A stretch of 64,000 bases of DNA, from assembly GCF_003334255.1 (NCBI RefSeq), contig NZ_QOWU01000010.1. One strand, 5' to 3'. Both the position numbers and the translations under genes were made by a program. Positions 33,061 through 48,830 of this stretch are shown here, piece after piece; positions within the stretch are counted from its first letter, which is position 1; each line of letters begins with the position of its first letter. The notes beneath the pieces are model-generated. The model was given only the letters and a program-made list of their open reading frames with translations. It was not told where the DNA came from and made no database searches. The DNA is from Escherichia coli (GTDB taxonomy: Bacteria > Pseudomonadota > Gammaproteobacteria > Enterobacterales > Enterobacteriaceae).

Positions 33061-33963
33061 CTCTTTATTGAGATCGCTTAACAGAACGGCGATGCTTTGA
33101 CCTCCCGCTGTTTGTTCAAGCGCAATTTTGACAATAATTGTCAACGGCACGGAAAGCAGCATACCCACCGGTCCTAACAACCATCCCCAAAAAATCAACG
33201 ACAAAAATACCACCAATGTGGAAAGCCCCAGCCCACGCCCCATGATACGCGGCTCCAGAATATTGCCGAAGACCAGATTAATCAGCAGATATCCCGCCAG
33301 CACCAGCAACGCTTCGTAGAAGCCATTAAACACCAGTACCTGAGCGATAGGGGGGATTGCCGCGAGGACTGAACCAATATTCGGGATGTAATTAAGCGCA
33401 AAGGCCAGCAATCCCCAGACAAAAGCGAAGCGAACATCGAGTGCGGCGAGCATCGCCCAGGCGACCAGGCCGGTGATGATGCTGATGGCTGTTTTCAGCA
33501 CCAGATAATGAGAAACACTGTCAATCGCACGTTGAATCGCCGCCATCCCTTCAACCGGACGCGCCATCATTTGCTGAAATTTTCCGGGCAATTGTGGCAC
33601 TTCGAGCAGCATAAACAGCACCGTCAGCAGCAATAAAAATATTGATGACATGGCATTAGATAACTGCGTCAATAAGTTGGTGAGCAACGTCATCGCCGCG
33701 TTCGGATCAATATAATGCGCCAGCTGGTCAACTGAGACGTCAATCCCTACGCGTTGCAACAACGGTTCAAGCGCTTGCAGCGGCGTCATAATAGAGTTGC
33801 GATATTGCGGTAACGTCCGCGTCAACTCGTTGAGCGCGGAACCCAGATAAGCTAATAGCAACACCATCGCCATCACGATGATGGTCATCAAAATCGACAC
33901 CGCCAGTACACGCGGCACACGCCAGCGGACCATGTGTTGCACCAGCGGGTTAAGAATAACAGC
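33058..33963 (-). pseudogene. tqsA: tqsA (ydgG) 3' fragment: AI-2 exporter lacking its first 45 codons because of island insertion
   Basis: Minus-strand coding sequence ...[27 protein letters not shown]... to stop matches TqsA residues 44-344; sequence 5' of 33964 is unrelated and enters an integrase gene. Confidence 0.88.
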
Positions 33964-33964
33964 A
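33956..33964. repeat. Left att core copy (ATAACAGCA) at island/tqsA junction (attL)
   Basis: Identical 9-mer at both junctions; flanking sequence on the outer sides corresponds to contiguous tqsA codons. Confidence 0.7.
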
Positions 33965-34091
33965 TTTTATCATTTAGTGTTTTTTGCTGTTTCATAATGT
34001 TTCAGGCTGTGCATTATGTTTTTGATTATCAACAGATTTGTGATTTTCCTTGTTCCAGCTTGTTTCACGTTGTAGCCCTTTGTGCAACGAT

Positions 34092-34115
34092 CGGTGTAGT
34101 CACTGGTGTAGTCAC
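34092..34115 (+). repeat. Tandem 10-bp repeat GGTGTAGTCA x2 (candidate integrase arm-type site) upstream of int
   Basis: CGGTGTAGTCACTGGTGTAGTCAC 25 bp upstream of the int start; a near-identical copy lies at 48725-48747 near the other island end. Confidence 0.5.
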
Positions 34116-34139
34116 TTTTTCGTAAAGAGGGGGTAAAAC

Positions 34140-35369
34140 GTGAGCAGAGCAATGAACAAACTGAGCGATACCTTGCTAAGGAAACTTCATGGTAAGCCAG
34201 CGGAGAAAAACACGTTTTATAGTGATGGCGGAAACCTGAGCGTGAAATATTTAACATCAGGGAAATTGACCTGGTATTTCACATACAGGGCCGGAACGGG
34301 AAGGGAGACACGACCCGAACGCATTAAGCTGGGAAGTTATCCTGATCTGAGCCTGAAAGCAGCCAGGGAAAAAGCCGCACAGTGTCGCACATGGCTGGCT
34401 GAGGGGAAAAATCCACGTCATGAGATGAATTACACCGTACAGGAAGCGTTAAAGCCCGTAACGGTTGGCGATGCGCTCACCTACTGGCTTGAGTATTACG
34501 TAAAGGAAAACCGCGTGGATTATATCGCCCTGAAAAGGCGACTTAATAATCACGTAATACAGCAGATTGGTGCTATGCCGCTGGATAAATGCGAGCTACG
34601 GCACTGGCTGGCCTGTTTTGACCAGGTGGCAAAGCGAACGCCTGTTACTGCCGGATTCGTGCTACAGGCGTGCAAACAGGCGCTTAAGTTCTGCCGTAGG
34701 CGGCGCTATGCAATCAGCAACGTTCTGGACGATCTGAACGTGGCGGACGTTGGGAAAAAACCGGATATAAGCGAACGTGTCTTAAGTAACAAAGAACTTG
34801 GCGAATTATTGCAGGCACTGGACAAAAAAATATTTTCCCCTTACTACGTCGCGTTAATCCGCCTCCTGATTGTCTTCGGAGCCAGGACGGTAGAACTGAG
34901 GCTATCGGAGATCGGGGAGTGGGATTTTACGGAAATGCTATGGACCGTTCCGAAGGAGCACAGCAAAACGAAGGTCGCAATATTCCGGCCCATACCGGAA
35001 GCGATCCTGCCGTTCGTCACGCAGCTGGTGGAGCAGAACAGGCACACGGGCTTATTGCTGGGGGAAGTGAAACAGGAGGCCAGCGTATCGCAGTATGGAA
35101 GATTAGCGCACAGGAGGCTTAATCATCCTCACTGGTCACTGCATGACATCCGGCGCACCTTTACAACCATGCTGAACGATTTAGGCGTTGATCCGCATGT
35201 CGTGGAGCAGCTTACAGGTCATCAGATGCCAGGAATGCAGCGAGTTTATAATCATTCCCGTTATCTGGATGCTAAACGCAATGCGCTGGATATGTGGATG
35301 GAGCGGTTAGGGATACTGGCGGGAACACATGAAAACGTAACCACGCTACCAGTAGCCAGAAGAAAATAA
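34140..35369 (+). CDS. int: Tyrosine integrase, P4-type (DUF4102 arm-binding N-terminal domain plus catalytic domain ending ...HDIRRTF...Y), 409 aa from GTG
   Basis: N-terminal KLSDTLLRKLHGKPAEKNTFYSDGGNLSVKYLTSGKLTWYF resembles the P4 integrase family N-terminus; C-terminal HxxRRT and downstream Tyr; GTG at 34140 has a GAGGGGG RBS (alternative ATG at 34152). Confidence 0.88.
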   Translation: MSRAMNKLSDTLLRKLHGKPAEKNTFYSDGGNLSVKYLTSGKLTWYFTYRAGTGRETRPERIKLGSYPDLSLKAAREKAAQCRTWLAEGKNPRHEMNYTVQEALKPVTVGDALTYWLEYYVKENRVDYIALKRRLNNHVIQQIGAMPLDKCELRHWLACFDQVAKRTPVTAGFVLQACKQALKFCRRRRYAISNVLDDLNVADVGKKPDISERVLSNKELGELLQALDKKIFSPYYVALIRLLIVFGARTVELRLSEIGEWDFTEMLWTVPKEHSKTKVAIFRPIPEAILPFVTQLVEQNRHTGLLLGEVKQEASVSQYGRLAHRRLNHPHWSLHDIRRTFTTMLNDLGVDPHVVEQLTGHQMPGMQRVYNHSRYLDAKRNALDMWMERLGILAGTHENVTTLPVARRK

Positions 35370-35743
35370 TTTTTTTCGTGTTTTTTCAGTATGCGCATAC
35401 TGGATATGCGAACAGATACAACATGCAACAATGAGCAACAATGCGGAACAACTACGAACAAGAGACGAAAAAGTGTACGGATTTATAAGTAGCTGATTTT
35501 TAATGTGTTACTGGTTTTTTATACACTAGCGAATCACTCTTTAAATAGCGAGAAAAAAGGCATGAAACAATATTTTATGCCTTTGTATTAACATGAATTT
35601 AAATGATTTTATCCTGATTATTCCTGTTTCTGTAAACCATACGACCTCAACATTTGCCAACTCTGAATCATCCTGACACAATCAGACACATCCCAACGCA
35701 ATAGAACACGAAATAACTCTTTAAGAAACGAAAGGGGGCAATA

Positions 35744-35932
35744 GTGTTAAGCACTGATCGGTTTATACGTGAAAAAGAATGCGAAAAGCTAACAGGCCTT
35801 AGCCGCTCATGCCGCTACCGCCTGGAAAAGGCCGGACAATTCCCATCACGTCGTAAACTTGGCGGTCGTTCCGTTGGCTGGTCTTTATCCGAGGTTCTGG
35901 CCTGGAAGGATAGCTGCAAGGCAGTTCATTAA
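35744..35932 (+). CDS. alpA: AlpA-family transcriptional regulator / excisionase-like HTH protein (62 aa, GTG start)
   Basis: LSTDRFIREKECEKLTGLSRSCRYRLEKAGQFPSRRKLGGRSVGWSLSEVLAWKDS fits the AlpA/Vis-type small HTH family; RBS AGGGGG 5 nt upstream. Confidence 0.75.
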   Translation: MLSTDRFIREKECEKLTGLSRSCRYRLEKAGQFPSRRKLGGRSVGWSLSEVLAWKDSCKAVH

Positions 35933-36432
35933 TCACGCTGGCGGCACACAGCCGCCACACATCAATCATCTGAACACAGAGCTATAACCATGAAGATTGA
36001 ATATACGCCAGAACGTGGGCGGGGATTCGTTCGCCCTGGTGAGACTGGAAAACCACAAAATTGGGGTTTTTCAGGCATAAAAAAAGCGGCCCCGAAATGG
36101 AGCCGCCTTTCTGAACAGATAACACGCTGCGCCGTTTGTGTGTGTGATCCCAAACATAAGCACGGGGATGATAGCCGCTATCAGGCTGGTGGGCAATGCA
36201 ATCAGTCTGGTTCAGTTCGTTGCCATACCTGCAATGAGCGCTTTTCCCTGTACTCTTTAAGGAATTGCTCAAGGGCAAAAGCACATGGCGCGAATCTTTC
36301 TGATTCATGCTCTATCTTTCTGCGCCGTCTTTTCCGTGCCGGTGATAATGTTTTGGTCAATTCTTTATCGGTCATTGTGTTGTCCTGCATAGCAATGCGC
36401 CGTAATACCTCACACCACGGCGCTGATAGTGA

Positions 36433-36738
36433 TTATTCTGATTCTTTGGCCTTGCGGCGCTGTAGTTCTTCACGAGCGATGGCGATAAGTTGCCCGAGTT
36501 CTTCCGTAGCTTTAATACCAATTTTTTCCACTTGCGCCAATGCATCGAGAGAAGAAATCAGAGGATTTTCACTGCTTCCTTCTGCCTGGCGGCGGGCGAT
36601 CTCCCCGCGCATGGCGGTTACTATGAATCCGGCGTTGCTTTCGCCGTCCAGTTTTACGGATTCCATGCCATCAAAAGCATCATGTGGGATACGAATTGAA
36701 ATCTGTTTTGATTTGTCGTTGATAGTGTTTTTTGCCAT
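36433..36738 (-). CDS. Hypothetical protein (101 aa), leftward-transcribed; candidate island regulator
   Basis: Start at Met 14 of the ORF, with AGGAGA RBS 7 nt upstream; the only clearly leftward gene in the island, divergent from the replication operon; function unknown. Confidence 0.5.
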   Translation of the reverse strand: MAKNTINDKSKQISIRIPHDAFDGMESVKLDGESNAGFIVTAMRGEIARRQAEGSSENPLISSLDALAQVEKIGIKATEELGQLIAIAREELQRRKAKESE

Positions 36739-36925
36739 GTGCATTCTCCTAAACAAAAGATGTGATTCAGTATACACAAAAAAGAATCACAAAAAACACT
36801 TGACCTGTGATTCAGTTGAATTTAATTTAAATCACACCTCAGTAAGAGGATGTAAACGACAACGCCCCGAACTGTTTGCGGCAGTAGCGGGGCGTCTAAC
36901 CAAACCGTTAACAGGAGTAACGATT

Positions 36926-37123
36926 ATGGCTGGAACACAGCATACCCCACGTCTGGCGCACACACAAACTGCCTTTGTGTGGCGTTTTCTGGCACTAAGT
37001 GCCGGAGAATCTCAAATCATCCACGTAACCGCCTGGACGGAACGCGAAGCGCGTAGCCGTTGCCCGTCCGGTTGTGTTGCTGTATTCGCCGCCCGTATTC
37101 GTCAGGGGGTGTGCCATGCCTGA
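36926..37123 (+). CDS. Small protein (65 aa), first gene of rightward operon; possibly Icd-like (function uncertain)
   Basis: ATG at 36926 preceded by AGGAG RBS (ACAGGAGTAACGATTATG); C-terminal part of the spurious long ORF 35990-37123; stop overlaps next gene start. Confidence 0.5.
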   Translation: MAGTQHTPRLAHTQTAFVWRFLALSAGESQIIHVTAWTEREARSRCPSGCVAVFAARIRQGVCHA

Positions 37124-37436
37124 CATGACCAATTACCAGTACCTGATTAATCCGCATTTTAACTGTGAGCATGATATTGCTAAAAAGGTTTATTCCGCTG
37201 CGGATGGGGCTACTGACAATATATCAATGGCTGTTTCGTCAATTGGTAGCCTGATGTGGTATGCGTCAGAAAATAAGGAATATGACGAAAAGGCCATGCG
37301 CATTGATATGGGTAATATTGGTTTGTTACTGGCAATGCTTGGACATTTTGATATTTCGTTACGGTGCACCATTGAAAATGCCACAGATGCATTAAATGCT
37401 ATAAAGAAAGCGAATACTGATTCAAATCGGGGATAA
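37116..37436 (+). CDS. Hypothetical protein (106 aa)
   Basis: ATG at 37116 overlapping the upstream stop (translational coupling); no recognisable motif. Confidence 0.5.
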   Translation: MPDMTNYQYLINPHFNCEHDIAKKVYSAADGATDNISMAVSSIGSLMWYASENKEYDEKAMRIDMGNIGLLLAMLGHFDISLRCTIENATDALNAIKKANTDSNRG

Positions 37437-37442
37437 ATAATC

Positions 37443-37742
37443 ATGAGAACGTATTTATCTGGCTTTACTGCCAGCGGTTATGCACACCCCAAAATTATCC
37501 CCGGCGCTATTTATCTGGATAAGAACGGTAACAGAGTAACGGTAAAAGAACTGATGTTTGACCGTGTGTATTTTATTCGTGATGGCTATTCATTTCATAG
37601 TTCGCTGAACGTGGAGATCTTTATTAGCAGATTCCGGCGGGAAATCCCGCTTTCCAGAAATAACCATGTGTCATGTATGGATGTTGATAAAAAACTACAG
37701 GAACTGAAAAACATGATTGCCGCGTGGAGAGAGCAGAAATGA
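37443..37742 (+). CDS. Hypothetical protein (99 aa)
   Basis: ORF directly upstream of and overlapping the primase gene start; no recognisable motif. Confidence 0.5.
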   Translation: MRTYLSGFTASGYAHPKIIPGAIYLDKNGNRVTVKELMFDRVYFIRDGYSFHSSLNVEIFISRFRREIPLSRNNHVSCMDVDKKLQELKNMIAAWREQK

Positions 37743-39556
37743 AAAAAGCGCCAAATTTAAAACACCAGCCGCGTGACAAAATGACGGAAGTCATCATTTT
37801 TGCGGGTAGTGATGCGTGGGCACATGCGAAGCAGTGGCAGGAACAGGACGGGCGACTGGCTGGCGATAACGTGCCACCTGTCTGGCTTGGAGAGCAACAA
37901 CTTGCCGAACTGGACAACCTGCAAATCGTACCGGACGGACGCTATCGCGTGCGTCTCTACCAGGCGGGGTTATTGCGTCCGGGGCTTGTTAATACCATCG
38001 GGCAGAAACTGGCAGCGGCAGGTGTCAGGGATGCTGATTATTACCCTGAAGGAATGCACAGCCAGAAACGGGAGAACTGGCGCGAATATCTGGAACGTGA
38101 GCGGGGAGAGCTGGCGGAAAAGAAAAAGGTAGTTGAACTGCCTGTAAAGAAAAAAGAGCGGGTAAAAGACGATAACGCTTCATCACTGGCGCTTAACCAG
38201 ATGGGAGCAAGTCAACGCGGCGAAGTTCTCCTGGCACATTATGGCGGTGAACTGGCGATTCATGCTGACTCTGACACTGTTCACTATTACAACGGCGTTG
38301 TATGGGAGCCAGTACAGGATAAAGAATTACAGCGAGCTATGGCGCAGATTTTCATTGATGCGGAGATCAGCTATTCGCAGAACGCCATTAAATCGGCGGT
38401 CGATACCATGAAGTTAAGTTTGCCTGTAATGGGGAATACAGCCCGTAACCTGATTGGATTCAGTAACGGTGTTTTTGATACCCGGACAGGCGATTTTCGG
38501 GAGCATAACAAAAACGACTGGTTGTTAATTGCCAGTGAATTACCTTTCAGCCCACCAGCAGAGGGGGAAACGCTGGCAACACATGCGCCGAATTTCTGGA
38601 AGTGGTTACGCCGTTCGGTGGCTGAGAATGACCGCAAGGCGGATCGCGTACTGGCTGCATTATTCATGGTGCTGGCGAACCGGTACGACTGGCAGTTATT
38701 CATTGAGGTAACAGGTCCAGGGGGAAGTGGTAAAAGCGTGATGGCGGAGATTTGCACCATGCTGGCGGGTAAGGCCAACACGGTATCGGCAAGCATGAAG
38801 GCGCTGGAAGATGCCAGGGAACGCGCGTTAGTGGTTGGCTTTTCGCTGATTATCATGCCGGATATGACCCGTTACGCTGGTGATGGCGCAGGAATTAAGG
38901 CCATTACAGGCGGTGACAAGGTGGCAATCGACCCGAAGCATAAAGCCCCCTACTCAACACGCATTCAGGCGGTAGTGTTGGCGGTGAACAATAACGCCAT
39001 GTCATTCAGTGACCGCAGCGGGGGGATTTCACGTCGTCGGGTGATATTCAATTTTTCGGAGGTTGTACCGGAAAACGAACGCGACCCCATGCTGGCAGAA
39101 AAAATAGAAGGAGAGCTGGCGGTTGTGATTCGCCACCTGCTTACTCGTTTTTCTGACCAGGACGCAGCTAAACGCCTGCTGTATGAGCAGCAGAAATCAG
39201 AAGAAGCTCTGGTGATAAAACGCGAGGGCGATTCGCTGGTGGACTTCTGCGGCTATCTCATGTCGTCGGTAATGTGTGATGGTCTGTTAGTGGGTAATGC
39301 CGAAATTATTCCGTTCAGTCCGCGCAGGTATCTTTATCACGCCTATCTGGCATATATGAGGGCACACGGATTCGGTAAACCTGTAACACTGACGCGCTTC
39401 GGTAAAGATATGCCGGGGGCAATGGCGGAATATGGCAGGGAGTATATGAAACGGAAAACGAAGCACGGTTTGCGTTCAAACGTGACACTGACGGAGGAAT
39501 CAGAAGACTGGATGCCATCATGTGTATCGGTCACTAATGACGATAGCAAAAATTAA
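37739..39556 (+). CDS. Primase / replication initiator with P4/D5-type NTPase domain (605 aa)
   Basis: Walker A VTGPGGSGKS and downstream Walker B-like hydrophobic-acidic stretch in the C-terminal half (P4-family primase C-terminal domain architecture); GGAGAG RBS before ATG 37739; followed by an iteron array. Confidence 0.75.
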   Translation: MKKAPNLKHQPRDKMTEVIIFAGSDAWAHAKQWQEQDGRLAGDNVPPVWLGEQQLAELDNLQIVPDGRYRVRLYQAGLLRPGLVNTIGQKLAAAGVRDADYYPEGMHSQKRENWREYLERERGELAEKKKVVELPVKKKERVKDDNASSLALNQMGASQRGEVLLAHYGGELAIHADSDTVHYYNGVVWEPVQDKELQRAMAQIFIDAEISYSQNAIKSAVDTMKLSLPVMGNTARNLIGFSNGVFDTRTGDFREHNKNDWLLIASELPFSPPAEGETLATHAPNFWKWLRRSVAENDRKADRVLAALFMVLANRYDWQLFIEVTGPGGSGKSVMAEICTMLAGKANTVSASMKALEDARERALVVGFSLIIMPDMTRYAGDGAGIKAITGGDKVAIDPKHKAPYSTRIQAVVLAVNNNAMSFSDRSGGISRRRVIFNFSEVVPENERDPMLAEKIEGELAVVIRHLLTRFSDQDAAKRLLYEQQKSEEALVIKREGDSLVDFCGYLMSSVMCDGLLVGNAEIIPFSPRRYLYHAYLAYMRAHGFGKPVTLTRFGKDMPGAMAEYGREYMKRKTKHGLRSNVTLTEESEDWMPSCVSVTNDDSKN

Positions 39557-39569
39557 ACTTATGGAATAA

Positions 39570-39792
39570 CTGTTCACCACTGTTCACCCTGTCATAAATA
39601 TCTTTTGTATCAGTATGTTATAGGGTGAACAGTTATTTATGAACTGTTCACCAAACTATTCACTGTTCACCTTTTTGATTGTTTATTGAGCTTCAAGGGT
39701 GAACAGTGGTGAATAGTTGGTGAATAGTTTTTGTGAAACTGTTCACCCCTTAACATTATGAATTAAAAGATAAAATATCAAAAGGTGAACAG
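39570..39792. repeat. Iteron array (at least 8 copies of CTGTTCACC / GGTGAACAG in both orientations): candidate island replication origin
   Basis: Copies at 39570, 39580, 39624(inv), 39644, 39663, 39698(inv), 39739, 39784(inv) plus GGTGAATAG variants at 39708 and 39718, in AT-rich DNA just after the primase gene. Confidence 0.65.
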
Positions 39793-39843
39793 GTGAAGGG
39801 TTAAAACGCAAAAATTTTAATTTACTGCTGTGAGATAAAGCCT

Positions 39844-40089
39844 ATGACAGCGAAGCACACAAAAAAATCACAATCGCACGCCCTTGATTTGACGGAACAC
39901 TGGTTAAGGGTGTCGATAAAAATCATCGACCGCAACGCCGGGGAAGGATATGCGAAAGCACATCCCGAACTGATTAGCTCATTCATGACAACGGCAGCTG
40001 CAAACTTTGCCACGCTGACAGAACGGGAGATTGCCGAAGCGGAACAGGTGACAACCATCAACGTTAAAACCGGAGAGCAGACAGCATGA
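39844..40089 (+). CDS. Hypothetical protein (81 aa)
   Basis: ORF immediately upstream of and overlapping the ssb start (ATGA overlap); weak RBS. Confidence 0.4.
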   Translation: MTAKHTKKSQSHALDLTEHWLRVSIKIIDRNAGEGYAKAHPELISSFMTTAAANFATLTEREIAEAEQVTTINVKTGEQTA

Positions 40090-40496
40090 CAGCACAGATA
40101 GCAGCTTACGGGCGGCTGGTGGACGACCCGCAGGTAAAACAGACCAGTAAGGGCACACCGATGACGCTGGCGCGTATGGCGGTATCGTTGCCATGTAGTC
40201 AGGCGCAGGATGGGCAGGCGACGTTATGGCTATCGGTCATCGCATTTGGTAAGCAGGCCGACTTCCTGGCTAAACATCAAAAAGGCGACGTTGCCAGCGT
40301 ATCCGGCACGATGCAGGTCAGCCAGTGGACCGGACAGAACGGGGAAACGCGGCAGGGTTATCAGGTTATTGCAGACAGCGTAATCAGTGCCCGTGCGGCA
40401 CGTCCTGGCGGGAACAGACGCAAAACCACAGGCACACAGGGTAATCAGCCACCAGCGGGAGGCGATGACCCTTACGGTGACGGTATTCCGTTCTGA
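40086..40496 (+). CDS. ssb: Single-stranded DNA-binding protein (136 aa)
   Basis: OB-fold-like N-terminal region, Gly/Pro/Gln-rich linker and acidic C-terminal tail ...DDPYGDGIPF, the hallmark SSB protein-interaction tail. Confidence 0.75.
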   Translation: MTAQIAAYGRLVDDPQVKQTSKGTPMTLARMAVSLPCSQAQDGQATLWLSVIAFGKQADFLAKHQKGDVASVSGTMQVSQWTGQNGETRQGYQVIADSVISARAARPGGNRRKTTGTQGNQPPAGGDDPYGDGIPF

Positions 40497-40506
40497 GGGG
40501 GTGGCG

Positions 40507-40779
40507 ATGGTACATGACCGCATAGCGGAAGAACTCGAGGCGAAAGGCTTTTACCGGAGGGCGGCGGCGCGATGGGGTGAAGTCATGCTGCTGGTGGAGA
40601 CAGACAAGGAACGGCATCAGGTTACGATGCGACGGCTGGAATGTTCCAGGAAGGCACAGAAGCCACCGGAGCCGCCGGATAACTTCGGAGACCTGAGAAA
40701 GGCAGTAGATCGCACTTATGCTGAAATGGGTATAGATGGTGTAAGCGATGAAATATGGCGTAATTACCCAGACAGCTAA
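40507..40779 (+). CDS. PerC-family-like small transcriptional activator (90 aa)
   Basis: MVHDRIAEELEAKGFYRRAAARWGEVM... resembles the conserved PerC motif (LEAxGxxRRAAxRW) as I remember it; GAGGGGG RBS. Confidence 0.5.
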   Translation: MVHDRIAEELEAKGFYRRAAARWGEVMLLVETDKERHQVTMRRLECSRKAQKPPEPPDNFGDLRKAVDRTYAEMGIDGVSDEIWRNYPDS

Positions 40780-40784
40780 TCAAC

Positions 40785-40808
40785 AGCCGGAGAAATCCGG
40801 CTTTTTTT
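40785..40808 (+). terminator. Intrinsic terminator
   Basis: AGCCGGAGAAATCCGGCT followed by TTTTTTT. Confidence 0.65.
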
Positions 40809-40903
40809 GCACCAGTTGAAACGGTATGGCGCATTACCGGGTTTTCGTCACGGTCAGGCATAGTTACTATCTGAAACAAACAGACACAACAGAGGAAAAA
40901 ACA

Positions 40904-41128
40904 ATGCCGATGAAATTTGATGAGATATTAAAACAGCGTGATAAATACCATGCTGACAACATGGAGACGATGAGCATCAATGATTACCGCGCATTCCTGG
41001 AGACGGGCGCACTGATTGAAAAGGATCAGCATGGTTTTGTGAGATGTGCTCTGTCCGGTGAAATGCTGGCGGTAAATCCTGAACAGATAGATGCATTGAT
41101 AGAATTTCTGAAAGGGATCAGGGACTGA
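40904..41128 (+). CDS. Hypothetical protein (74 aa)
   Basis: Start at internal Met with GAGGAAAAAACA-ATG RBS; followed by a terminator almost identical to the one at 40785. Confidence 0.45.
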   Translation: MPMKFDEILKQRDKYHADNMETMSINDYRAFLETGALIEKDQHGFVRCALSGEMLAVNPEQIDALIEFLKGIRD

Positions 41129-41138
41129 GCACGCATAC

Positions 41139-41160
41139 AGCCGGAGCAATCCGGCTTTTT
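41139..41160 (+). terminator. Intrinsic terminator (near-duplicate of 40785-40808)
   Basis: AGCCGGAGCAATCCGGCT followed by TTTTT. Confidence 0.65.
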
Positions 41161-41420
41161 GTCATTTTTTGTAAATTATTTGTTCGTGGTTGTTCCACGT
41201 TGTTCACTGACAGGATCGGCATATTTTACCCGAACTGAATCATGAGTATTCTCGCCCGTGGTGCCAGGACGCTGGGGCCACTTTCCCGCCTGTTAATGTG
41301 CTCGCCAATATTCATTACCAGGCGGGAAAACGATCGGTGCGATTGCTGATTTCCTTATGAAAAACGGTTGAGTTTTTGCCGCGTCCTGGAGTTCCTTACT
41401 TAACCCCAGGACTTTTTTTT

Positions 41421-42578
41421 ATGCCGAGAATAATCGAATTACGCCAGCAGAAAACCGCCATTAAAAATCAGATGCGCGACATGCTGGAGAACGCGGAAAA
41501 AGAAAACCGCAGCCTTAACGATGCAGAGGGCGCAAAATTTGACGAATTACGCGCTAAAGCTGAATCCCTCGATAAAGACATTTCCCGCCTTGAAGCCATT
41601 GCAGACGAAGAGCGCAGCAAGCCAGGTAAAAGCAGCCAGACCACTGACCCGGCAGAACTCCGCAACTACATCCTGACAGGTGAAACCCGCGCATTAAGTA
41701 CAGGCGTTCCCGCTGATGGTGGTTATACCGTTATCCCCGAACTGAACACCGAAATCATGCGAATGCTGACGGATGAATCCACCATGCGCCGCATCTGTAC
41801 CGTGAAGAAAATCAGCAGCAACGAGTTTAAGCAGCTTGTTTCCGCTGGCGGTGCGACCGTTAACCACGGTGAAGAGGGTAAGACACGCGAACAGACCAGC
41901 ACCCCGCAGATTAACGAGGTGAGCATTAAGCTGTATCCGGTCTATGCGTACCCGCGCACCACACAGGAAATCGTGGATTTTTCCGATGTGGACATCCTTT
42001 CATGGCTGACGGGTGAGATTGGCGACACCTTCACGGAAACCGAAGAAAGCGATCTGGTTGTGGGCGACGGTGACAAAAAAGCAAAAGGTTTTTTATCCGT
42101 ACCCCGTGCAGAGAAGAACGACAAAGAGCGTGATTTTGGTACGTTGCAGGTAATTAAACCTTCCGAATCTCTGGCGTGGACATCTGCGGACCCGCTGATC
42201 GACCTGAAATTTGCATTACGTAAAAAATACCGCAAAAACGCGGTCTGGGTGGTTAACTCCACGACGGCGGCAAAACTTCAGAAGGTGAAGAACGCGAACG
42301 GTGATTACATCTGGCGCGACCGTTTACAGGCGGGTGATCCTGATACGTTGCTGGGCCTTCCGGTCGAATATCTGGAGTTTATGCCTGATAACGTTATTGC
42401 CCTGGGTGACTTCAAACGCGGTTACTACATTGTTGATCACGAAACAGGTGTTCGCACCAGACCGGACAACCTCACAGAGCCGGGCTTCATCAAAATTTTC
42501 ACGCAGAAATATTTAGGCGGTGGCGTGGTGGATTCGAACGCGATCAAGATTCTGGAACTGCCACAGGACGACGATTAA
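41421..42578 (+). CDS. Major capsid protein, HK97 fold, with N-terminal coiled-coil scaffolding (delta) domain (385 aa from ATG 41421)
   Basis: N-terminal coiled-coil region (IELRQQKTAIKNQMRDMLENAEKENRSLNDAEGAKFDELRAKAESLDKDISRLEAIADEE) followed by a region typical of HK97-family capsid proteins; ORF track start 41376 is a TTG extension; strong terminator follows. Confidence 0.85.
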   Translation: MPRIIELRQQKTAIKNQMRDMLENAEKENRSLNDAEGAKFDELRAKAESLDKDISRLEAIADEERSKPGKSSQTTDPAELRNYILTGETRALSTGVPADGGYTVIPELNTEIMRMLTDESTMRRICTVKKISSNEFKQLVSAGGATVNHGEEGKTREQTSTPQINEVSIKLYPVYAYPRTTQEIVDFSDVDILSWLTGEIGDTFTETEESDLVVGDGDKKAKGFLSVPRAEKNDKERDFGTLQVIKPSESLAWTSADPLIDLKFALRKKYRKNAVWVVNSTTAAKLQKVKNANGDYIWRDRLQAGDPDTLLGLPVEYLEFMPDNVIALGDFKRGYYIVDHETGVRTRPDNLTEPGFIKIFTQKYLGGGVVDSNAIKILELPQDDD

Positions 42579-42590
42579 CAGCATACAGAA

Positions 42591-42620
42591 GGGGCTTAAA
42601 AGCCCCTTTAGTGTTTTATG
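42591..42620 (+). terminator. Intrinsic terminator after major capsid gene
   Basis: GGGGCTT-AA-AAGCCCC hairpin followed by a T-rich tract. Confidence 0.65.
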
Positions 42621-42632
42621 GGTGAAAAAATT

Positions 42633-43190
42633 ATGAAGAGTATGGAAATCCGGTCATCGGAAATCACCACCAGCGCCAGCAACACGCTTACAGGCTACGT
42701 TGTTCGCTGGGATAAGCTTTCAGAGCTGCTATGGGGGGAGTTTTACGAAAAATTCCAGCGGGGAGCGTTTACTGAATGGCTTGCGGCGGGTAATGACGTT
42801 CGCGGCCTGTATGAGCATGACCACAGCATGTTGCTGGGGCGTACCCGTTCCGGCACGCTGAAACTGGAAGAGGACGAAACAGGGTTACGCTTTGAACTGA
42901 CCCCACCGGATACCAGTACAGGGCGCGACGTTATCGAACTGGTTAAGCGTGGGGACATCTCGGGGATGAGCTTTGGCTTTCGCTCCCGTAAGGATGTATG
43001 GGATACCACAACAGATCCATGCGTGCGCACCGTGCTGGTGGCGGAACTGTACGAAATTACCGTTACATCGGTACCGGCTTACCCCGATTCCGGCGTGGAG
43101 CTGGCCCGCCGTTCCCTGTATGAGCAGCACCCCGAAAAAATGCCGCGTGCGGATAATCGCCGCTGGTGGGTGGATTTAGCGGGGGTGTGA
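42633..43190 (+). CDS. Prohead maturation protease, HK97 family (S78-like), about 186 aa
   Basis: Sequence typical of HK97-type prohead proteases (GYVVRWDKLS..., YEHDHSMLLGRTRSGTL, GDISGMSFGF); start ambiguous among ATG 42618/42633/42642. Confidence 0.8.
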   Translation: MKSMEIRSSEITTSASNTLTGYVVRWDKLSELLWGEFYEKFQRGAFTEWLAAGNDVRGLYEHDHSMLLGRTRSGTLKLEEDETGLRFELTPPDTSTGRDVIELVKRGDISGMSFGFRSRKDVWDTTTDPCVRTVLVAELYEITVTSVPAYPDSGVELARRSLYEQHPEKMPRADNRRWWVDLAGV

Positions 43191-43191
43191 T

Positions 43192-44403
43192 ATGTGGCTT
43201 TTCAGAAGAAAAAAAGAGCAGCGCAGCATGACGCTTGATGAATTTATGGCGCTGGCTGGCACATCGAACACGGGGGCGGGTGAGTACGTATCATCGGGGA
43301 CAGCGGAATCACTGCCCGCCGTCATGAACGCCGTGACGGTCATCTCTGAGGCGGTGGCTACCATGCCGTGTTACCTGTACCTGGTACGCAATGAGAAGGG
43401 GAAGGAGGCCCGCGAGTGGCTTGATTCTCATCCGGTCGATCACATCCTCAACGAGCGCCCGAACGCGTGGCAGACTCCCTACCAGTTTAAGCGAATGATG
43501 ATCCGCCACTGCCTGTTAAACGGTAATGCTTATGCGGTGATTCAGTGGGGGCGTGATGGTTTTCCGGTGGCTTTACATCCTTACCCGCCGCAGTCGGTGA
43601 ACGTGGAGCAGACAGGCGAACACAACTGGCGCTACTGCATCACTGACGCCTACACCGGAAACACCCGCAACTATTTACCGTGGGAGGTTCTCCACCTTCG
43701 TTACTCCACGGATGACGGTTTTATGGGGCGCTCACCTGTAACCATCTGCCGCGAATCGCTGGGGCTTGGGCTGGCCCAACAACGCCACGGCGCGAGCGTG
43801 ATGCGTGATGGCATGATGGCGGCAGGGGTTATCACGTCAGGCGAATGGCTGGACGGCGTGAAGGGCAAACAGGCATTAGCCGCACTGGAACGCTACAAAG
43901 GGGCCAGAAACGCCGGAAAAACGCCCATCCTTGAAGGGGGTATGAGCTATCAGCAGCTGGGCATGAGTAATCAGGATGCTGAATGGCTGGCCTCCCGTCG
44001 CTTCACCATTGAAGACATCGCCCGAATGTTCAACGTCTCGCCGATTTTTCTGCAGGAATACAGCAACAGCACCTACAGCAATTTCAGCGAGGCAAGCCGC
44101 GCATTTCTCACCATGACAATGCGCCCGTGGCTGGCGAACTTTGAGCAGCAGATAAAAAACGCCCTGCTGGTGGCCTCGCCTGTACCTGGTATCCGGTATC
44201 AGGTGGAGTTTGACAGCGCGGACCTGTTACGGGCCACACCTGGCGAACGCTTTGCCACCTATGAACGCGGCATCAAATCCGGCGTTATGTGCCCGAACGA
44301 AGCCCGCGAACGTGAAGGGCTGTCCCCGCGTGATGGTGGTGATGAGTTCAGCCAGGCATGGAAACAGGAAGTAAAAATCAGCGAGGGAGAAAAACCGGAA
44401 TGA
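43192..44403 (+). CDS. Portal protein, HK97 family (403 aa)
   Basis: Size, position and conserved portal-like core (…LLNGNAYAVIQWGRDG…, …ILEGGMSYQQLGMSNQDAEWL…); immediately follows the protease with 1-nt spacing. Confidence 0.8.
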   Translation: MWLFRRKKEQRSMTLDEFMALAGTSNTGAGEYVSSGTAESLPAVMNAVTVISEAVATMPCYLYLVRNEKGKEAREWLDSHPVDHILNERPNAWQTPYQFKRMMIRHCLLNGNAYAVIQWGRDGFPVALHPYPPQSVNVEQTGEHNWRYCITDAYTGNTRNYLPWEVLHLRYSTDDGFMGRSPVTICRESLGLGLAQQRHGASVMRDGMMAAGVITSGEWLDGVKGKQALAALERYKGARNAGKTPILEGGMSYQQLGMSNQDAEWLASRRFTIEDIARMFNVSPIFLQEYSNSTYSNFSEASRAFLTMTMRPWLANFEQQIKNALLVASPVPGIRYQVEFDSADLLRATPGERFATYERGIKSGVMCPNEAREREGLSPRDGGDEFSQAWKQEVKISEGEKPE

Positions 44404-44738
44404 ACATAGGGCGACTGCGTGACAGGGTAACGATTCAGACCCTGAAACAGACCAGGGATATAACCGGCGAAATACTCGAAACGTGGGAGGACGGTCACAC
44501 ACTCTGGGCAAGCGTGAACATGATCAGCAGCAAGGAGGCCATTTCATCGGGTGCAGAGCTGGCGATTGGTACCGTAAGGATCTGGATACGGTACCGGAAG
44601 GACATCAATGCCACCAGCCGGATAAAGGTCAGTACGGGGCCGCTGGCGGGGCGTGTACTGAATATCATCGGGCAGCCGCTGCCGGATGCCGCCAGGACAC
44701 GCCTTGAAATTCTTTGTCGTGAGGGCGCGGAAAAATGA
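44400..44738 (+). CDS. Head closure / head-tail adaptor protein (112 aa)
   Basis: MNIGRLRDRVTIQTLKQTRD... resembles the head-tail joining family; ATGA overlap with portal stop; GAGGGAGA RBS. Confidence 0.7.
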   Translation: MNIGRLRDRVTIQTLKQTRDITGEILETWEDGHTLWASVNMISSKEAISSGAELAIGTVRIWIRYRKDINATSRIKVSTGPLAGRVLNIIGQPLPDAARTRLEILCREGAEK

Positions 44739-45031
44739 CAGAAGAACTTATCACCCTGGAAGAAGTGAAACTCCATTGCCGCATCGATGGCGACGAGGAA
44801 GACCAGTTAATCAGCGGATACATCGCCGCATCGCTTGAGGCGTGCCAGATACACATAGGCAGGCGCTTTGATGACGGGCTGGAGTTCACGCCAGCCATAA
44901 AGATTGGCTGCATGATGTTTATCGCTCACCTGTATGAAAATCGCCAGATTGTCGCGGATAACGCAAAAACACGCGTACCCATGACGATTGGTGCACTCTG
45001 GACGGCTTACCGTGATGTGGGGGTGTACTGA
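44735..45031 (+). CDS. gp6-like head-tail connector protein (98 aa)
   Basis: MTEELITLEEVKLHCRIDGDEEDQLISGYIAASLEACQIHIG... resembles the gp6-like connector family N-terminus. Confidence 0.7.
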   Translation: MTEELITLEEVKLHCRIDGDEEDQLISGYIAASLEACQIHIGRRFDDGLEFTPAIKIGCMMFIAHLYENRQIVADNAKTRVPMTIGALWTAYRDVGVY

Positions 45032-45471
45032 TGCCGTGGCAACCATTAAGACGATGCACAGAACCAGGCTGTAACAGGCGCGTGAAGTCCGGCAAGTGTG
45101 AGGAGCACAGGCGGGCGGCATGGCGTGCAGAGGATGCCAGACGAGGACACCGCCGCGCGCGTGGGTACTCCAGACAGTGGGACAAATACCGCGCCATGTA
45201 TCTGAGTAAAAACCCGTTATGCGTGCGATGCCTTGAGAAGGGGATATATACGCCCGCCGTGGTGGTGGATCACATTATCCCGATTAATGGCGGTGATGAT
45301 GTTCTCTTCTGGCCCGAATGGAACCATCAGCCATTGTGCCAGGCGTGCCATAACCAGAAAACGAAATGGCTTGATCCGGCAACAAAAAGCAAGCGTGCCG
45401 CAGGTGGATTTCGTGAAGAGGAAGAACGGGCCGCTAACCGCAATAACTGGATGTATGACGCTGATGAATGA
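45031..45471 (+). CDS. HNH endonuclease (packaging-associated), 146 aa
   Basis: Cys pairs plus VVDHIIPINGGDD...NHQPLCQACHNQK (HNH motif); located immediately upstream of TerS as in HK97-like cos packaging modules. Confidence 0.85.
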   Translation: MPWQPLRRCTEPGCNRRVKSGKCEEHRRAAWRAEDARRGHRRARGYSRQWDKYRAMYLSKNPLCVRCLEKGIYTPAVVVDHIIPINGGDDVLFWPEWNHQPLCQACHNQKTKWLDPATKSKRAAGGFREEEERAANRNNWMYDADE

Positions 45472-45759
45472 GCGGGAACAAAACCGCCTTATCCGTGGAC
45501 TTATAAGGCAGCGTGACGCATGGAAGACACAGGAAACAGGGCATAAAGATAAAGCGTCAGGACGCGCAGAACGCATCACAGCGAAGCGATTAACCGACCG
45601 TGACCGCGAGGTTATGGAATGTTTCCGCAATCGCTGATGAGGCTGTATGACGGGGTGGGGGGCGTTTTCAGGACAAACCCGACCCCGCCGGGCACCGACC
45701 GCCTCCTCAAATTTTTATGCACGGGAATTTTTTGAAAAATAATCTGACGAAAAATAAGC

Positions 45760-46116
45760 ATGGCAAGACCACCGAAAGCCCCCGCCTACCTGGATGACAT
45801 CGCCGTGAAGCAGTGGCGGGAAAAATCGCGGCAGCTTGCGGAACGGGGAGACCTGACCCCCGCCGACTGGAGCAATCTGGAACTGTATTGTGTCAACTAC
45901 TCCATTTACCGGAAAGCCGTCGCAGACCTTGCGGCGCGCGGGTTCAGCATTGTTAACAGTCAGGGCGGCGAGAGCAGAAACCCCGCATTAAGCGCGAAAT
46001 CAGACGCTGAAAGGGTGATGATAAAAATGGCCTCCTTGCTCGGTTTTGACCCGATAAGCCGCCGTAAAAACCCACCGGAAACAGAAGAAGAGGACGAGCT
46101 TGACCGCCTGGAATAA
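45760..46116 (+). CDS. Terminase small subunit, P27 family (118 aa)
   Basis: Resembles P27-type TerS (AVKQWREKSRQLAERGDLTPADWSNLELYCVNYSIYRKA); overlaps TerL start. Confidence 0.8.
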   Translation: MARPPKAPAYLDDIAVKQWREKSRQLAERGDLTPADWSNLELYCVNYSIYRKAVADLAARGFSIVNSQGGESRNPALSAKSDAERVMIKMASLLGFDPISRRKNPPETEEEDELDRLE

Positions 46117-47761
46117 GTACGCAGAAGACGTAAAAACGGGCAAAATTCAGGCCTGTAAACGGTTAAAACAGGCCGTTAAACGGTACTTTTCGGACCTTAA
46201 AAGCCCCCTTTACACGTTCGATCGTGAGGTTGTGGATCGGTTTATTGCCTTTTCCAGGGTGTGCCCGCACGTAAAAGGGCCGATGCGTGGCAGACCCATT
46301 GAGCTGGAGCCGTGGCAGCAGTTCGCCTTTGCGTGCATCCTCGGCTTTAAGGTTAAGGCCACCGGACGGCGCAAATATACGAGCGCCTTTATCGAAGTGC
46401 CGCGCAAAAATGCTAAATCAACGACCGCCGCGATTCTGGCTAACTGGTTTCTGATTATGGAGAACGGTCAGCAGGATATTTACACCGCAGCGGTGAGCCG
46501 TGACCAGGCGAGGATCGTATTTGATGATGCGCGTCAGATGTGCATTTTATCCCGACCGTTACGCAGGCGGGTGAATATTCAGGCGCATAAGGTGATACAC
46601 CCGAAAACCAACAGCCTGTTAAAGCCGCTGGCAGCAAAAGCGGCAACTATCGAGGGCACAAACCCCAGTCTTTCTATCGTGGACGAATACCACCTACACC
46701 CCGACAACGGCGTATATTCTGCGCTTGAACTGGGGATGGGGGCACGTCCCGAAGGGCTGTTATTTGCCATTACCACATCGGGAAGTAACGTCGTTTCAGC
46801 CTGTAAGCAGCATTATGATTATTGCTGCCAGATCCTGGACGGCGAAGAGGTTAACGAATCGCTTTTTGTGCTGATTTACGAACTGGACGACGAAAACGAG
46901 GTTGATGATCCGGAGATGTGGATAAAGGCGAACCCTAATATCGATGTTTCCGTGGATCGTGAAAAACTGGCCTCAACCATTCAGAAAGCGCGGGGTATTC
47001 CGTCGCAATGGGTGGAGATGATGACAAAGCGATTTAATATCTGGTGTCAGGGGACTACCCCGTGGATGGGTAATGGTGCATGGGCTGAGTGTGCCGGAAC
47101 GTTCACGGAGGAAGATTTACACGGTCAGGAGTGTTACGCGGGGCTGGACTTATCATCAACCAGCGATATTTCCAGCGTGTGCTATGCCTTTCCGGTCGGT
47201 AAAACCATTATGATGATTTCCCGTCATTATCTGCCGGAGTTCCAGCTACAGAACCCCGCCAATAAAAACCGCGCTGTCTATCGTCAGTGGGCTAAAGCAG
47301 GCTGGATACGCACAACGCCTGGCGACTGCATTGATTACGACCGGATCAGAGATGACATCATGCAGGACGCGGAGAAATTTAATATCAGGCTGGTGGGCTT
47401 TGATACGTGGAACGCCACGCATCTCAGAACGCAATTACAGGGGGCAGGTTTTGAGGTGGAGCCGTTCCCGCAAACCTACCTCAGATTCAGTCCGGCGGCG
47501 AAATCGTTCGAAGTTTTTGTTAACCGCAGGGTGATTGTGCATCGTGGCGATCCGGTGTTGTCCTGGTCGATGAGTAACGTCGTGATGCAGAGTGACGCGA
47601 ACGCCAATATCAAGCCGAACAAGAAAAAATCACCGAACAAGATAGACCCGAGCGTGGCGGCGCTGATGGCGTTTGGTACATTCCAGGCAGAGCATGAGGA
47701 TTTTGCTTTTGATATAAGCGACAGCCACCGCCAGAAACTGGAAGAATTTAGCGGGGTGTAA
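46100..47761 (+). CDS. Terminase large subunit (553 aa; apparent TTG start)
   Basis: ATPase and nuclease domains in typical TerL arrangement; no in-frame ATG/GTG near the 5' end, TTG at 46100 preceded by GAGGA. Confidence 0.85.
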   Translation: MTAWNKYAEDVKTGKIQACKRLKQAVKRYFSDLKSPLYTFDREVVDRFIAFSRVCPHVKGPMRGRPIELEPWQQFAFACILGFKVKATGRRKYTSAFIEVPRKNAKSTTAAILANWFLIMENGQQDIYTAAVSRDQARIVFDDARQMCILSRPLRRRVNIQAHKVIHPKTNSLLKPLAAKAATIEGTNPSLSIVDEYHLHPDNGVYSALELGMGARPEGLLFAITTSGSNVVSACKQHYDYCCQILDGEEVNESLFVLIYELDDENEVDDPEMWIKANPNIDVSVDREKLASTIQKARGIPSQWVEMMTKRFNIWCQGTTPWMGNGAWAECAGTFTEEDLHGQECYAGLDLSSTSDISSVCYAFPVGKTIMMISRHYLPEFQLQNPANKNRAVYRQWAKAGWIRTTPGDCIDYDRIRDDIMQDAEKFNIRLVGFDTWNATHLRTQLQGAGFEVEPFPQTYLRFSPAAKSFEVFVNRRVIVHRGDPVLSWSMSNVVMQSDANANIKPNKKKSPNKIDPSVAALMAFGTFQAEHEDFAFDISDSHRQKLEEFSGV

Positions 47762-47774
47762 TGAGGTCAGCAGC

Positions 47775-48056
47775 ATGACAGAAGCCGAAATAACGGGATT
47801 AATCCGCCGCGTTGCCGGAATCAGCCAGCAGGCTGACGAACAGGCCACGCAGCCGGACAGCGTGACAGCCGAAAACTATGCGCGTGTTGTTGCTGAGGTG
47901 ATGCGCCGTGATGGTATAGAACTTAATGGCGTGGATATGCGCAACATACGAACCAGAGTTCTTGAGTTGCTGGCCTACCGTCGCCGCGTGGAGATGTATC
48001 GGGAGAAGGAGAAAATAACGTACCACTGGAAGAAGCCGGAGCGGTTGCGGCGGTAA
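47775..48056 (+). CDS. Hypothetical protein (93 aa), last gene of island
   Basis: ATG 47775 with GAGG RBS 8 nt upstream; no recognisable motif. Confidence 0.5.
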   Translation: MTEAEITGLIRRVAGISQQADEQATQPDSVTAENYARVVAEVMRRDGIELNGVDMRNIRTRVLELLAYRRRVEMYREKEKITYHWKKPERLRR

Positions 48057-48349
48057 CTGGTTGATATTCCCGACGGACCAAAAATGGGTGGCTACATCCC
48101 TCGCTTCTGAGGACTGTTAACAAGCTGCCTGAAAGACAGTCACAAACTACGAAATTTTCGCAGTTTAATTAATGATCAGCTTAATCGCTAACCCGCTGAT
48201 ATTTTCGGAAACCTCAATTTGAGGAAGTCGGCGCGGTAACTCGCTGAACTTTAAGCAAAGTGCAAAATTGCGCTTGCTGAATAATCATTATGATTACGCA
48301 GATGATTAAGGAATGACCGAAGGCGGAAATTCGCCTGTGGTTAATGGGG

Positions 48350-48462
48350 GAGTTGCAGATCTGCAACTCGACCATGAAACTACGGAAACTACCCGTAGTT
48401 TGGGTAGTAAGAGTAACACCCAGATTTTGGGTCTTACTCGTGATACCCAAATTTGGGGTATC
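48350..48462. repeat. Cluster of perfect and near-perfect palindromes in the island right arm
   Basis: Perfect 20-bp palindrome GAGTTGCAGATCTGCAACTC (48350-48369); AAACTACGG/CCGTAGTTT stem (48376-48400); nested AGTAAGA...ACCCA...TGGGT...TCTTACT (48406-48439); GATACCCAAATTTGGGGTATC (48442-48462). Confidence 0.6.
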
Positions 48463-48724
48463 AGTGGCAACCATAACGACTTTCGTTACGGTTGATGCTT
48501 TTACCCCATTGGGGGAAAGGTATTACGATAATCATAACACCTACCGAACAGGTAAAGCCCACCAGCCTGATTAACGTTTAACCGGAAAAAAATTCCGGTA
48601 GGTGGGGATCCCCATATCGACATTAACGCCCCTCATGAATTGGTGCGCTTCCCCCTGGAAAGATGATCCGCCTGTATATTTCTTGTGTCTATTTGTTCCA
48701 CGTTGTTTCATACAGTGCACCGAA

Positions 48725-48747
48725 CGGTGTAGTCACTGGTGTAGTCA
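48725..48747 (+). repeat. Tandem 10-bp repeat GGTGTAGTCA x2 (second copy of candidate arm-type site)
   Basis: CGGTGTAGTCACTGGTGTAGTCA, same orientation as 34092-34115; preceded by TTGTTCCACGTTGTT, which recurs at 41190. Confidence 0.5.
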
Positions 48748-48821
48748 TTTTGCGATTTTTGGCACTTTTTGCGGTGAAAATTATTTAATTAAATCAACGT
48801 GTTATGTGAAATAAGTTATAT

Positions 48822-48830
48822 ATAACAGCA
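48822..48830. repeat. Right att core copy (ATAACAGCA) at island/tqsA junction (attR)
   Basis: Identical to 33956-33964; followed by contiguous tqsA 5' coding sequence. Confidence 0.7.

Follow-up and report, generated by a model that had tools for sequence, protein, structure and literature searches.

Capsid-to-terminase gene order in a packaging operon attributed to an EcCIEDL933-type capsid-forming island of Escherichia coli

A stretch of 64,000 nucleotides of Escherichia coli DNA (NCBI RefSeq assembly GCF_003334255.1, contig NZ_QOWU01000010.1; hereafter the window) contains phage-type head and packaging genes that run from capsid to terminase, which is not the order of HK97-like phages. Does this order mark the locus as something other than a decayed prophage, and does it have a function? 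A sequence-only reading had proposed that it distinguishes the element from an ordinary prophage remnant and may reflect a packaging specificity of its own. With high confidence, the genes at 41421-47761 were assigned to the capsid-and-packaging operon of a phage-inducible chromosomal island of the capsid-forming kind (cf-PICI) and EcCIEDL933 type, which here lies in tqsA. The gene order had been read correctly but was not new, since the module is near-identical to that of EcCIEDL933 and the order was published by Alqurainy et al. (bioRxiv 10.1101/2022.09.08.507074); the copy in the window is a close variant of the studied prototype.

Gene order of the packaging module

Genes were assigned by searching the open reading frames (ORFs) with PHROGs, NCBIfam and Pfam profiles, and all genes of the module lay on the plus strand (Table 1). 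The matches to TIGR01554, TIGR01543 and TIGR01537 all exceeded the curated NCBIfam cut-offs, which identified an HK97-type head module. The order capsid, protease, portal, head closure, adaptor, HNH, TerS and TerL was borne out by the three profile collections, and positions 41421-47761 corresponded exactly to the stretch from the capsid start to the TerL stop. The assignments of capsid, protease and portal, on which the unconventional order depends, were retained after these domain searches. All ten ORFs of the module were intact, and most of them abutted or overlapped. There were only two real gaps, one of 39 nt 3' of the capsid gene and one of 122 nt before TerS (the cos gap); according to the ORF coordinates, the remaining junctions abut or overlap by 1-17 nt.

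Two details of the proposed layout were modified. HNH precedes TerS, as had been claimed, but is not directly adjacent to it, as orf60 and the 122-bp non-coding gap intervene. The terminase genes do lie near the att-proximal end of the island, but TerL is not the last gene; orf93 follows it, and the distance from the end of orf93 to the attR core is about 0.77 kb, most of it non-coding.

In the HK97 record the order is TerS-TerL-portal-protease-major capsid protein (MCP)-Ad1-Hc1, the same as had been given for the conventional case, and the tail genes follow. The window did not show this order. HK97 and the window share the protein families of all eight genes, an HNH-dependent cos terminase, the succession HNH-cos-TerS-TerL on the circular map (HNH being at the right genome end of HK97), a comparable sequence layout of the cos region and a hairpin 3' of the capsid gene. 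However, protein identity was only about 25-27% (portal, TerL), the portal-protease-capsid block and the Ad1-Hc1 pair of the window are each internally inverted in order, and the head blocks of the window lie upstream of HNH, whereas those of HK97 lie downstream of TerL and are followed by tail genes, which the window lacks. The head closure protein Hc1 reached 50% identity to HK97 gp7, more than any other protein of the module; this fits selection for docking the tails of HK97-like helpers. Because the order differs and tail genes are absent, the element is neither an HK97-like phage nor a simple remnant of one. The adjacency of HNH and TerS alone does not mark a satellite, because the circular map of HK97 has HNH-cos-TerS too; what differs is the location of the head genes and their internal order. 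The synteny comparison that had been suggested as a check separated the module from HK97 and placed it with the cf-PICIs.

Alignment with the intact tqsA of E. coli K-12 showed that the island occupies 33965-48830, with 14,866 bp between the att cores. From left to right it carries the integrase gene, alpA, several small ORFs, the primase gene, palindromic repeats resembling an origin, the gene of a single-stranded DNA-binding protein (SSB), a PerC-like regulator and the head and packaging genes. The profile searches found no match to a tail or lysis family among the island ORFs, and the PGAP annotation of a 99.8% identical island copy lists no tail or lysis genes. Compared with the cf-PICI criteria in the Methods of bioRxiv 10.1101/2025.02.11.637232, the island falls within the size range of about 10-18 kb; has modules for integration (integrase), regulation (alpA) and replication (primase, phrog_864, and SSB); encodes all eight head and packaging proteins with strong profile matches; shows, as read from the coordinates, the proteobacterial order of capsid, protease, portal and connectors followed by hnh-terS-terL; and has neither lysis genes nor a complete tail module. 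The proposal that the order marks a cf-PICI rather than a prophage remnant was supported, as these features agree with the published proteobacterial organisation.

The EcCIEDL933 type and the spread of the order

EcCIEDL933 is a 15.4-kb island of E. coli O157:H7 EDL933 with int, alpA, rep and the genes from capsid to TerL, and without tail genes. Its order is conserved among proteobacterial cf-PICIs, and the packaging modules of phages and PICIs differ in genetic organisation. When any of its packaging genes was mutated, transfer of the PICI was abolished or severely reduced, whereas the phage was transferred as before; mutation of the phage homologues had the reverse effect. A mutant of the hypothetical gene '1792' showed reduced transfer (all from bioRxiv 10.1101/2022.09.08.507074).

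EcCIEDL933 was located directly in the EDL933 genome, next to roxA. A full copy with the same protein accessions was present in O157:H7 ATCC 35150, and protein identities were computed against this copy. Capsid, TerS, Ad1 and orf60 were 100% identical, portal and HNH 99.3%, protease 98.9%, TerL 97.8%, Hc1 96.4%, the integrase 91% and orf93 87%. Capsid residues 93-99 are STGVPAD, which fits the SxGxxAD motif of the mature N-terminus (bioRxiv 10.1101/2025.02.11.637232). Content and order were the same from the SSB gene to orf93, with about 97.7% DNA identity over 8.2 kb, and both islands have an alpA-type regulator, TTGTT arrays at the same four places and the cos gap. The suggested tie between the order and the element's own packaging specificity was upheld in that the module is 96-100% identical to that of EcCIEDL933, whose own transfer is abolished or severely reduced in packaging-gene mutants. 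The two islands differ in that the window island is 14.9 kb long and lies in tqsA, whereas EcCIEDL933 lies between roxA and phoQ; in addition, the replication protein of the window island belongs to a DNA primase family and that of EcCIEDL933 is a DUF927 protein, the first 144 residues being alignable (70%).

Of 5,426 complete E. coli genomes, 413 carried the 6.3-kb module in collinear form. In IMG/VR, all 80 loci with a TerL 78-100% identical kept MCP-protease-portal-Hc1-Ad1-HNH-orf60-TerS-TerL wherever the genes were present, and the same order was found in loci recovered through the leader motif described below. The orf60 family (phrog_3173) occurred in nearly all relatives. The order was also that of Pasteurella Pmp8, whose capsid, protease, portal and terminase proteins are 56-68% identical. 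In the phage collection, identity above 58% was limited to records of satellite size (vB_KppS-Ant, Pmp7, Pmp8 and a Salmonella fragment) and to a single Klebsiella record of 106 kb. Among the phage matches of at most 37% identity, HK97 and YeP1 had the canonical order by annotation, and the coordinates of several others fitted it.

The vB_KppS-Ant clade (LR881103) and Pasteurella Pmp7 and Pmp8 are cf-PICIs that were deposited as phages; they share the order and have a size of 10.7-16.5 kb. Protein identity to the window was 38-84% for vB_KppS-Ant and 24-68% for Pmp8. The enterobacterial clade has the same leader and cos blocks as the window island; however, both groups carry other integrases and other regulators, the repeats that precede the capsid promoter differ by subtype, and Pmp8 lacks orf60 as well as a leader directly before the capsid gene. 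The vB_KppS-Ant clade is possibly that of KpCIDSM30104 and EcCIGN02175.

Several GenBank 'phage' records of 3.8-16.5 kb (LR881103.1, OR544138.1, OR544139.1, OR850982.1 and PQ569648.1) are really cf-PICIs or fragments of them. The 106-kb record of Klebsiella phage P12620-1 contains TerL and capsid genes of a cf-PICI in a permuted order, with TerL first and a distance of about 9.6 kb between them, which suggests a co-assembled satellite. In three IMG/VR variants of a clade with about 65% capsid identity, the protease gene is separated from the post-capsid hairpin by an additional ORF (about 190 aa) whose sequence, judged by eye, looks like an HNH/AP2-type homing endonuclease. A lambdoid prophage near EcCIEDL933 (L209 9209-17565, corresponding to 1649209-1657565 of the EDL933 chromosome) has HNH, TerS, TerL, large capsid protein, portal, connector and head closure; capsid before portal therefore also occurs in tailed E. 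coli prophages.

Two other groups of satellites were compared. The cf-PICIs of Firmicutes have the same gene content and tail-stealing lifestyle, but one group begins with portal-protease-capsid and the other with HNH-TerS-TerL, and the published trees give these groups independent origins (bioRxiv 10.1101/2022.09.08.507074). Islands that re-use helper capsid proteins (PMC6092414) share the int-alpA-pri backbone, the rightward unidirectional transcription and AlpA as a helper-dependent activator, but encode no capsid, portal or terminase large subunit.

Table 1. Positions of genes and sequence signals of the island in the window
Feature	Position	Strand	Evidence or remark
attL core ATAACAGCA	33956-33964	.	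K-12 tqsA alignment; island begins at 33965, within tqsA
attL arm	34050-34114	+	phased TTGTT array 34050-34083; two GGTGTAGTCA repeats 34093-34114
Tyrosine integrase	34140-35369	+	NCBIfam; 91% identical to EcCIEDL933-type integrase
Five phased TTGTT repeats between int and alpA	35417-35461	-	candidate AlpA autoregulation site; array also there in O157 island
alpA, excisionase-type activator	35744-35932	+	Pfam Phage_AlpA, E 5.6e-18; phrog_2790
Primase/replicase (pri-rep)	37724-39556	+	phrog_864, E 1e-193
Invariant box TTTTGTAAATTATTTGT	41167-41183	+	conserved in 65 related loci
TTGTT array (three times), capsid promoter region	41180-41204	+	subtype-specific phased repeats
Weak -35 TTTACC	41225-41230	+	putative capsid promoter region 41167-41252
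Weak -10 TATTCT	41247-41252	+	putative capsid promoter region 41167-41252
Leader, about 165 nt	41258-41420	+	conserved in 65 loci
Leader hairpin 1, GACG loop	41258-41281	+	
Leader hairpin 2	41283-41328	+	
Leader terminal hairpin	41383-41412	+	hides ribosome-binding site; followed by T8 at 41413-41420 directly before ATG
Major capsid protein, HK97 fold	41421-42578	+	TIGR01554, E 7e-88
Terminator-like hairpin after capsid stop	42588-42609	+	GC-rich, T-rich tail
HK97 prohead protease	42618-43190	+	TIGR01543
HK97 portal	43192-44403	+	TIGR01537
Head closure Hc1, HK97 gp7-like	44400-44738	+	phrog_25, TIGR01563
Head-tail adaptor Ad1, HK97 gp6-like	44735-45031	+	phrog_40, TIGR01560
HNH endonuclease (packaging cofactor)	45031-45471	+	phrog_144, PF01844
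orf60, conserved basic 60-aa ORF	45455-45637	+	phrog_3173; overlaps HNH 3' end, precedes cos
Candidate cos region	45650-45745	.	left genome end predicted at about 45706 (CTCAAATTTTTATGC)
TerS, P27 family	45760-46116	+	TIGR01558
TerL	46100-47761	+	phrog_9, E 1.8e-179; PF03354 (ATPase) and PF20441 (nuclease)
orf93, 93-aa ORF 3' of TerL	47775-48056	+	phrog_1561
attR arm	48683-48747	+	TTGTT array 48683-48707; two GGTGTAGTCA repeats 48726-48747
attR core ATAACAGCA	48822-48830	.	same 9-mer as attL; island end

Candidate cos, TTGTT repeats and capsid leader

The gap between orf60 and TerS was strongly conserved in 67 sequence variants, with the invariant blocks GGGGTGGGGG..TTTTCAGGAC and CACC..GCC.CCTCAAATTTTTAYGCACGG..ATTTTTTTGAAAATAA. 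It resembled the corresponding gap of Pmp8, and the right and left ends of the HK97 record shared its layout. In an alignment, window position 45706 coincided with the left terminus of HK97 and with that of Yersinia phage YeP1. A metagenome contig of 15,518 bp (L127) started exactly at the equivalent base (CTCAAATTTTTACGC), with TerS at 61, and its other end was also predicted at the cos site from the distance to the capsid gene. In the record of vB_KppS-Ant, which came from induced particles, about 75 nt that are present in all its relatives were missing around this position; such a loss would be expected of poorly covered physical ends. On the circular map HNH adjoins this gap and terS, the arrangement of HNH-dependent cos packaging of the type of Kala et al. 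(2014), as cited in bioRxiv 10.1101/2022.09.08.507074. The 122-bp gap before TerS is thus a candidate cos, with a predicted cut at about 45706. The cf-PICI literature describes the cos ends as cohesive and assigns tail specificity to the adaptor and connector proteins (bioRxiv 10.1101/2022.09.08.507074, 10.1101/2025.02.11.637232).

With cos placed at about 45706, the packaged genome would most likely read TerS-TerL-orf93-att-int-alpA-pri-...-capsid-protease-portal-Hc1-Ad1-HNH-orf60. The virion map most likely has the same ends as in HK97 (TerS-TerL left, HNH right), with the head genes on the other side and their internal order changed. TerL comes to lie at the island end because attP is just downstream of it, where a phage would carry its portal gene.

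The pattern TTGTT-N5-TTGTT-N5-TTGT, with a 10-bp period, had eight matches in the window, where 0.05 would be expected. All but one of them lay at four places of the island, namely the attL arm, the int-alpA gap, the capsid promoter region and the attR arm; the EcCIEDL933-type island had arrays at the same four places. The arms inside both island ends were alike, each with two GGTGTAGTCA repeats and a phased TTGTT array. AlpA is an activator of the excisionase family that also activates its own gene (PMC6092414), and overexpression of alpA alone suffices for the formation of EcCIEDL933 capsids (bioRxiv 10.1101/2022.09.08.507074, 10.1101/2025.02.11.637232). Because of these properties, and because both att arms, the alpA upstream region and the capsid promoter region have such repeats in common, the arrays are likely AlpA sites, through which AlpA would directly link excision to expression of the capsid operon. 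No published AlpA binding motif was found in PMC11773190 or PMC6092414. An 8-mer search for the subtype-specific capsid-promoter repeats at the att arms of other subtypes was noisy, and most loci were without arms.

A terminator is located at 41139-41156, and from the motifs downstream of it we infer that 41167-41252 is the promoter region of the capsid operon. The leader that follows had a fold z-score of -4.9 against shuffled sequences. In 29 distinct sequences its first two hairpins were 97% paired, and compensatory changes were seen at 13 pairs; slid controls gave 32-47% pairing. The apical part of hairpin 1, CCAGGACGC (41264-41272), which includes the invariant GACG loop, is complementary to GCGTCCTGG (41381-41389), a segment overlapping the 5' arm of the terminal hairpin. 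This alternative long-range helix was also 97% paired, with four compensatory pairs, all from one clade split. The exact 23-mer of hairpin 1 was found in at least 119 IMG/VR loci, and in 117 of them a capsid homologue begins 110-149 nt downstream.

It is conceivable, if rather unlikely, that the leader is a cis-regulatory RNA switch not yet described. Such a switch would consist of the two covarying hairpins and the terminal hairpin that hides the ribosome-binding site (a terminator in this subtype), behind a promoter with TTGTT repeats, and the alternative pairing would unfold the terminal hairpin and thereby activate the operon. The leader had no Rfam match, and promoters, terminators and transcription of the packaging operon are not mentioned in bioRxiv 10.1101/2022.09.08.507074 or 10.1101/2025.02.11.637232; the leader RNA is the only item at this locus that may be new. 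An HK022 put RNA or a Q-dependent late leader was considered and rejected, as the HK022 Q-S intergenic region showed no resemblance and hairpin 1 had no match in HK022 within 3 mismatches. Antitermination by a helper Q protein is unlikely, because alpA overexpression alone gives capsids. A locus beside a P2-like prophage (L195, 820-1100), with an orphan capsid promoter box and leader hairpins and without a capsid gene, was rejected as a second context of the leader and regarded as a truncated cf-PICI remnant.

All 18 distinct intergenic variants of the relatives have the hairpin after the capsid stop, as do vB_KppS-Ant and Pmp8. In HK97, too, gp5 is followed by a putative terminator at this place.

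Other parts of the island were also inspected. Palindromes GGTGAACAG..CTGTTCACC are repeated at 39559-39750, just 3' of the primase gene, and are likely the replication origin; similar TGTTCACC repeats occur in vB_KppS-Ant (L003 11720-11960). An Rfam scan of the whole island with E up to 0.1 left the leader and cos unmatched and gave only two plant-miRNA matches at 39632-39739, which are spurious and are due to these palindromic repeats. The segment 36440-36886 (447 bp) departs from the island of strain G6/7 (281 bp there), which is elsewhere 99-99.7% identical, and a mechanically called ORF at 35990-37123 spans two separate G6/7 genes (a hypothetical protein and an Icd-like protein). The stretch from orf93 to the attR arm (48057-48680) has a low GC content of about 44%, several short hairpins and one unsupported minus-strand ORF of 86 aa. 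It is only partly conserved in the O157 island and is a variable region, the site of cargo in other cf-PICIs; the corresponding region of vB_KppS-Ant has a 765-aa gene annotated as tape measure.

Mechanism, reasons for the order and meaning

By analogy with EcCIEDL933 and its relatives, a lambdoid HK97-like helper phage would turn on alpA, and AlpA would lead to excision, replication and expression of the packaging operon. This operon would be read from its own weak promoter behind the phased TTGTT repeats, beginning with the structured leader; the capsid gene would be transcribed first and the conserved hairpin next, with the lower-copy genes behind it in translationally coupled blocks. The island capsid protein, protease and portal would assemble small capsids, the HNH-TerS-TerL complex would cleave and package island DNA at the island cos, and the head closure and adaptor proteins would dock tails made by the helper. 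Induction by the helper via alpA, own small capsids, self-only packaging and the use of helper tails, which experiments have shown for EcCIEDL933 and relatives, are assumed for the window copy and carried over by its 96-100% protein identity.

Several points weigh against this interpretation. The window copy is assigned its function from its relatives. The integrase (91%), the attachment site (tqsA against roxA/phoQ) and the primase differ from those of EcCIEDL933, and for this reason inducibility of the window copy by the helpers of EcCIEDL933, which is mobilised by HK106 and HK446, is an assumption. The cos cut is placed by homology and one contig end, and the vB_KppS-Ant record could have been opened near terS by convention. 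The TTGTT arrays could be integrase arm sites or sites of host factors. In the leader, the compensatory changes of hairpin 1 and of the long-range helix stem from a single two-clade split.

A decayed and rearranged HK97-like prophage remnant, immobile and with head and terminase genes kept by chance, would account for the absence of tail and lysis genes, and the non-canonical order could be obtained by deletion and rearrangement. This explanation is very improbable and already contradicted, since all ten ORFs are intact and mostly overlap or abut, all 80 relatives, whose TerL identity goes down to 78%, and Pasteurella elements at 56-68% have the same order and content, the element size is steady at about 13-17 kb, virion-derived records exist (vB_KppS-Ant and the contig that starts at cos), and the near-identical prototype EcCIEDL933 is mobile in experiments. 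For the cf-PICI itself, it is quite possible, if short of probable, that the order has no functional meaning and is a frozen accident of the ancestral satellite's capture of a head module, kept via linkage. The Firmicute cf-PICIs, with the same content in two other orders, indicate that function does not demand one order, and the TerL-capsid-portal succession of the EDL933 prophage beside EcCIEDL933 shows that head-gene order varies naturally; however, the order is invariant in Proteobacteria across deep divergence and is accompanied by conserved signals that depend on position (the leader before the capsid gene, the hairpin after it and cos before TerS).

These signals favour some functional tie of the order. 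One such tie, which we put forward tentatively, is an expression gradient: with the capsid gene nearest the promoter and a hairpin after it that attenuates transcription or stabilises the transcript, capsid would be made in excess over protease, portal, connectors and terminase. This would agree with the 240 capsid proteins per particle as against a portal complex at a single vertex (bioRxiv 10.1101/2025.02.11.637232), with the translational coupling of the downstream genes by overlaps of 1-17 nt, with the stem-loop and T-rich tail conserved in all variants after the capsid stop and with the putative HK97 terminator at the same place. However, the hairpin stem is invariant, and its structure is for that reason not proven by covariation; and in HK97 the same hairpin follows a capsid gene that is not the first gene.

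The capsid-to-terminase order is useful in annotation because it tells cf-PICIs from prophage remnants, as published since 2022; to this the window copy adds only one more site of integration, tqsA, and another allele of the primase. The candidate cos site and, above all, the structured leader, with its possible switch, emerged in addition and may be new. A precise candidate cos, the evidence for HK97-like packaged ends and conserved non-coding signals would be aids to annotating and engineering cf-PICIs. These elements are important because phage tails are all that they require for spreading and because they can pass between species. The promoter repeats, the leader and the post-capsid hairpin, none of which is mentioned in the two cf-PICI papers cited above, could explain how the operon is switched on and balanced. 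If the proposed switch is real, the capsid-first order, the leader and the post-capsid hairpin would form a circuit that couples excision, through AlpA at att, to graded expression of capsid and terminase.

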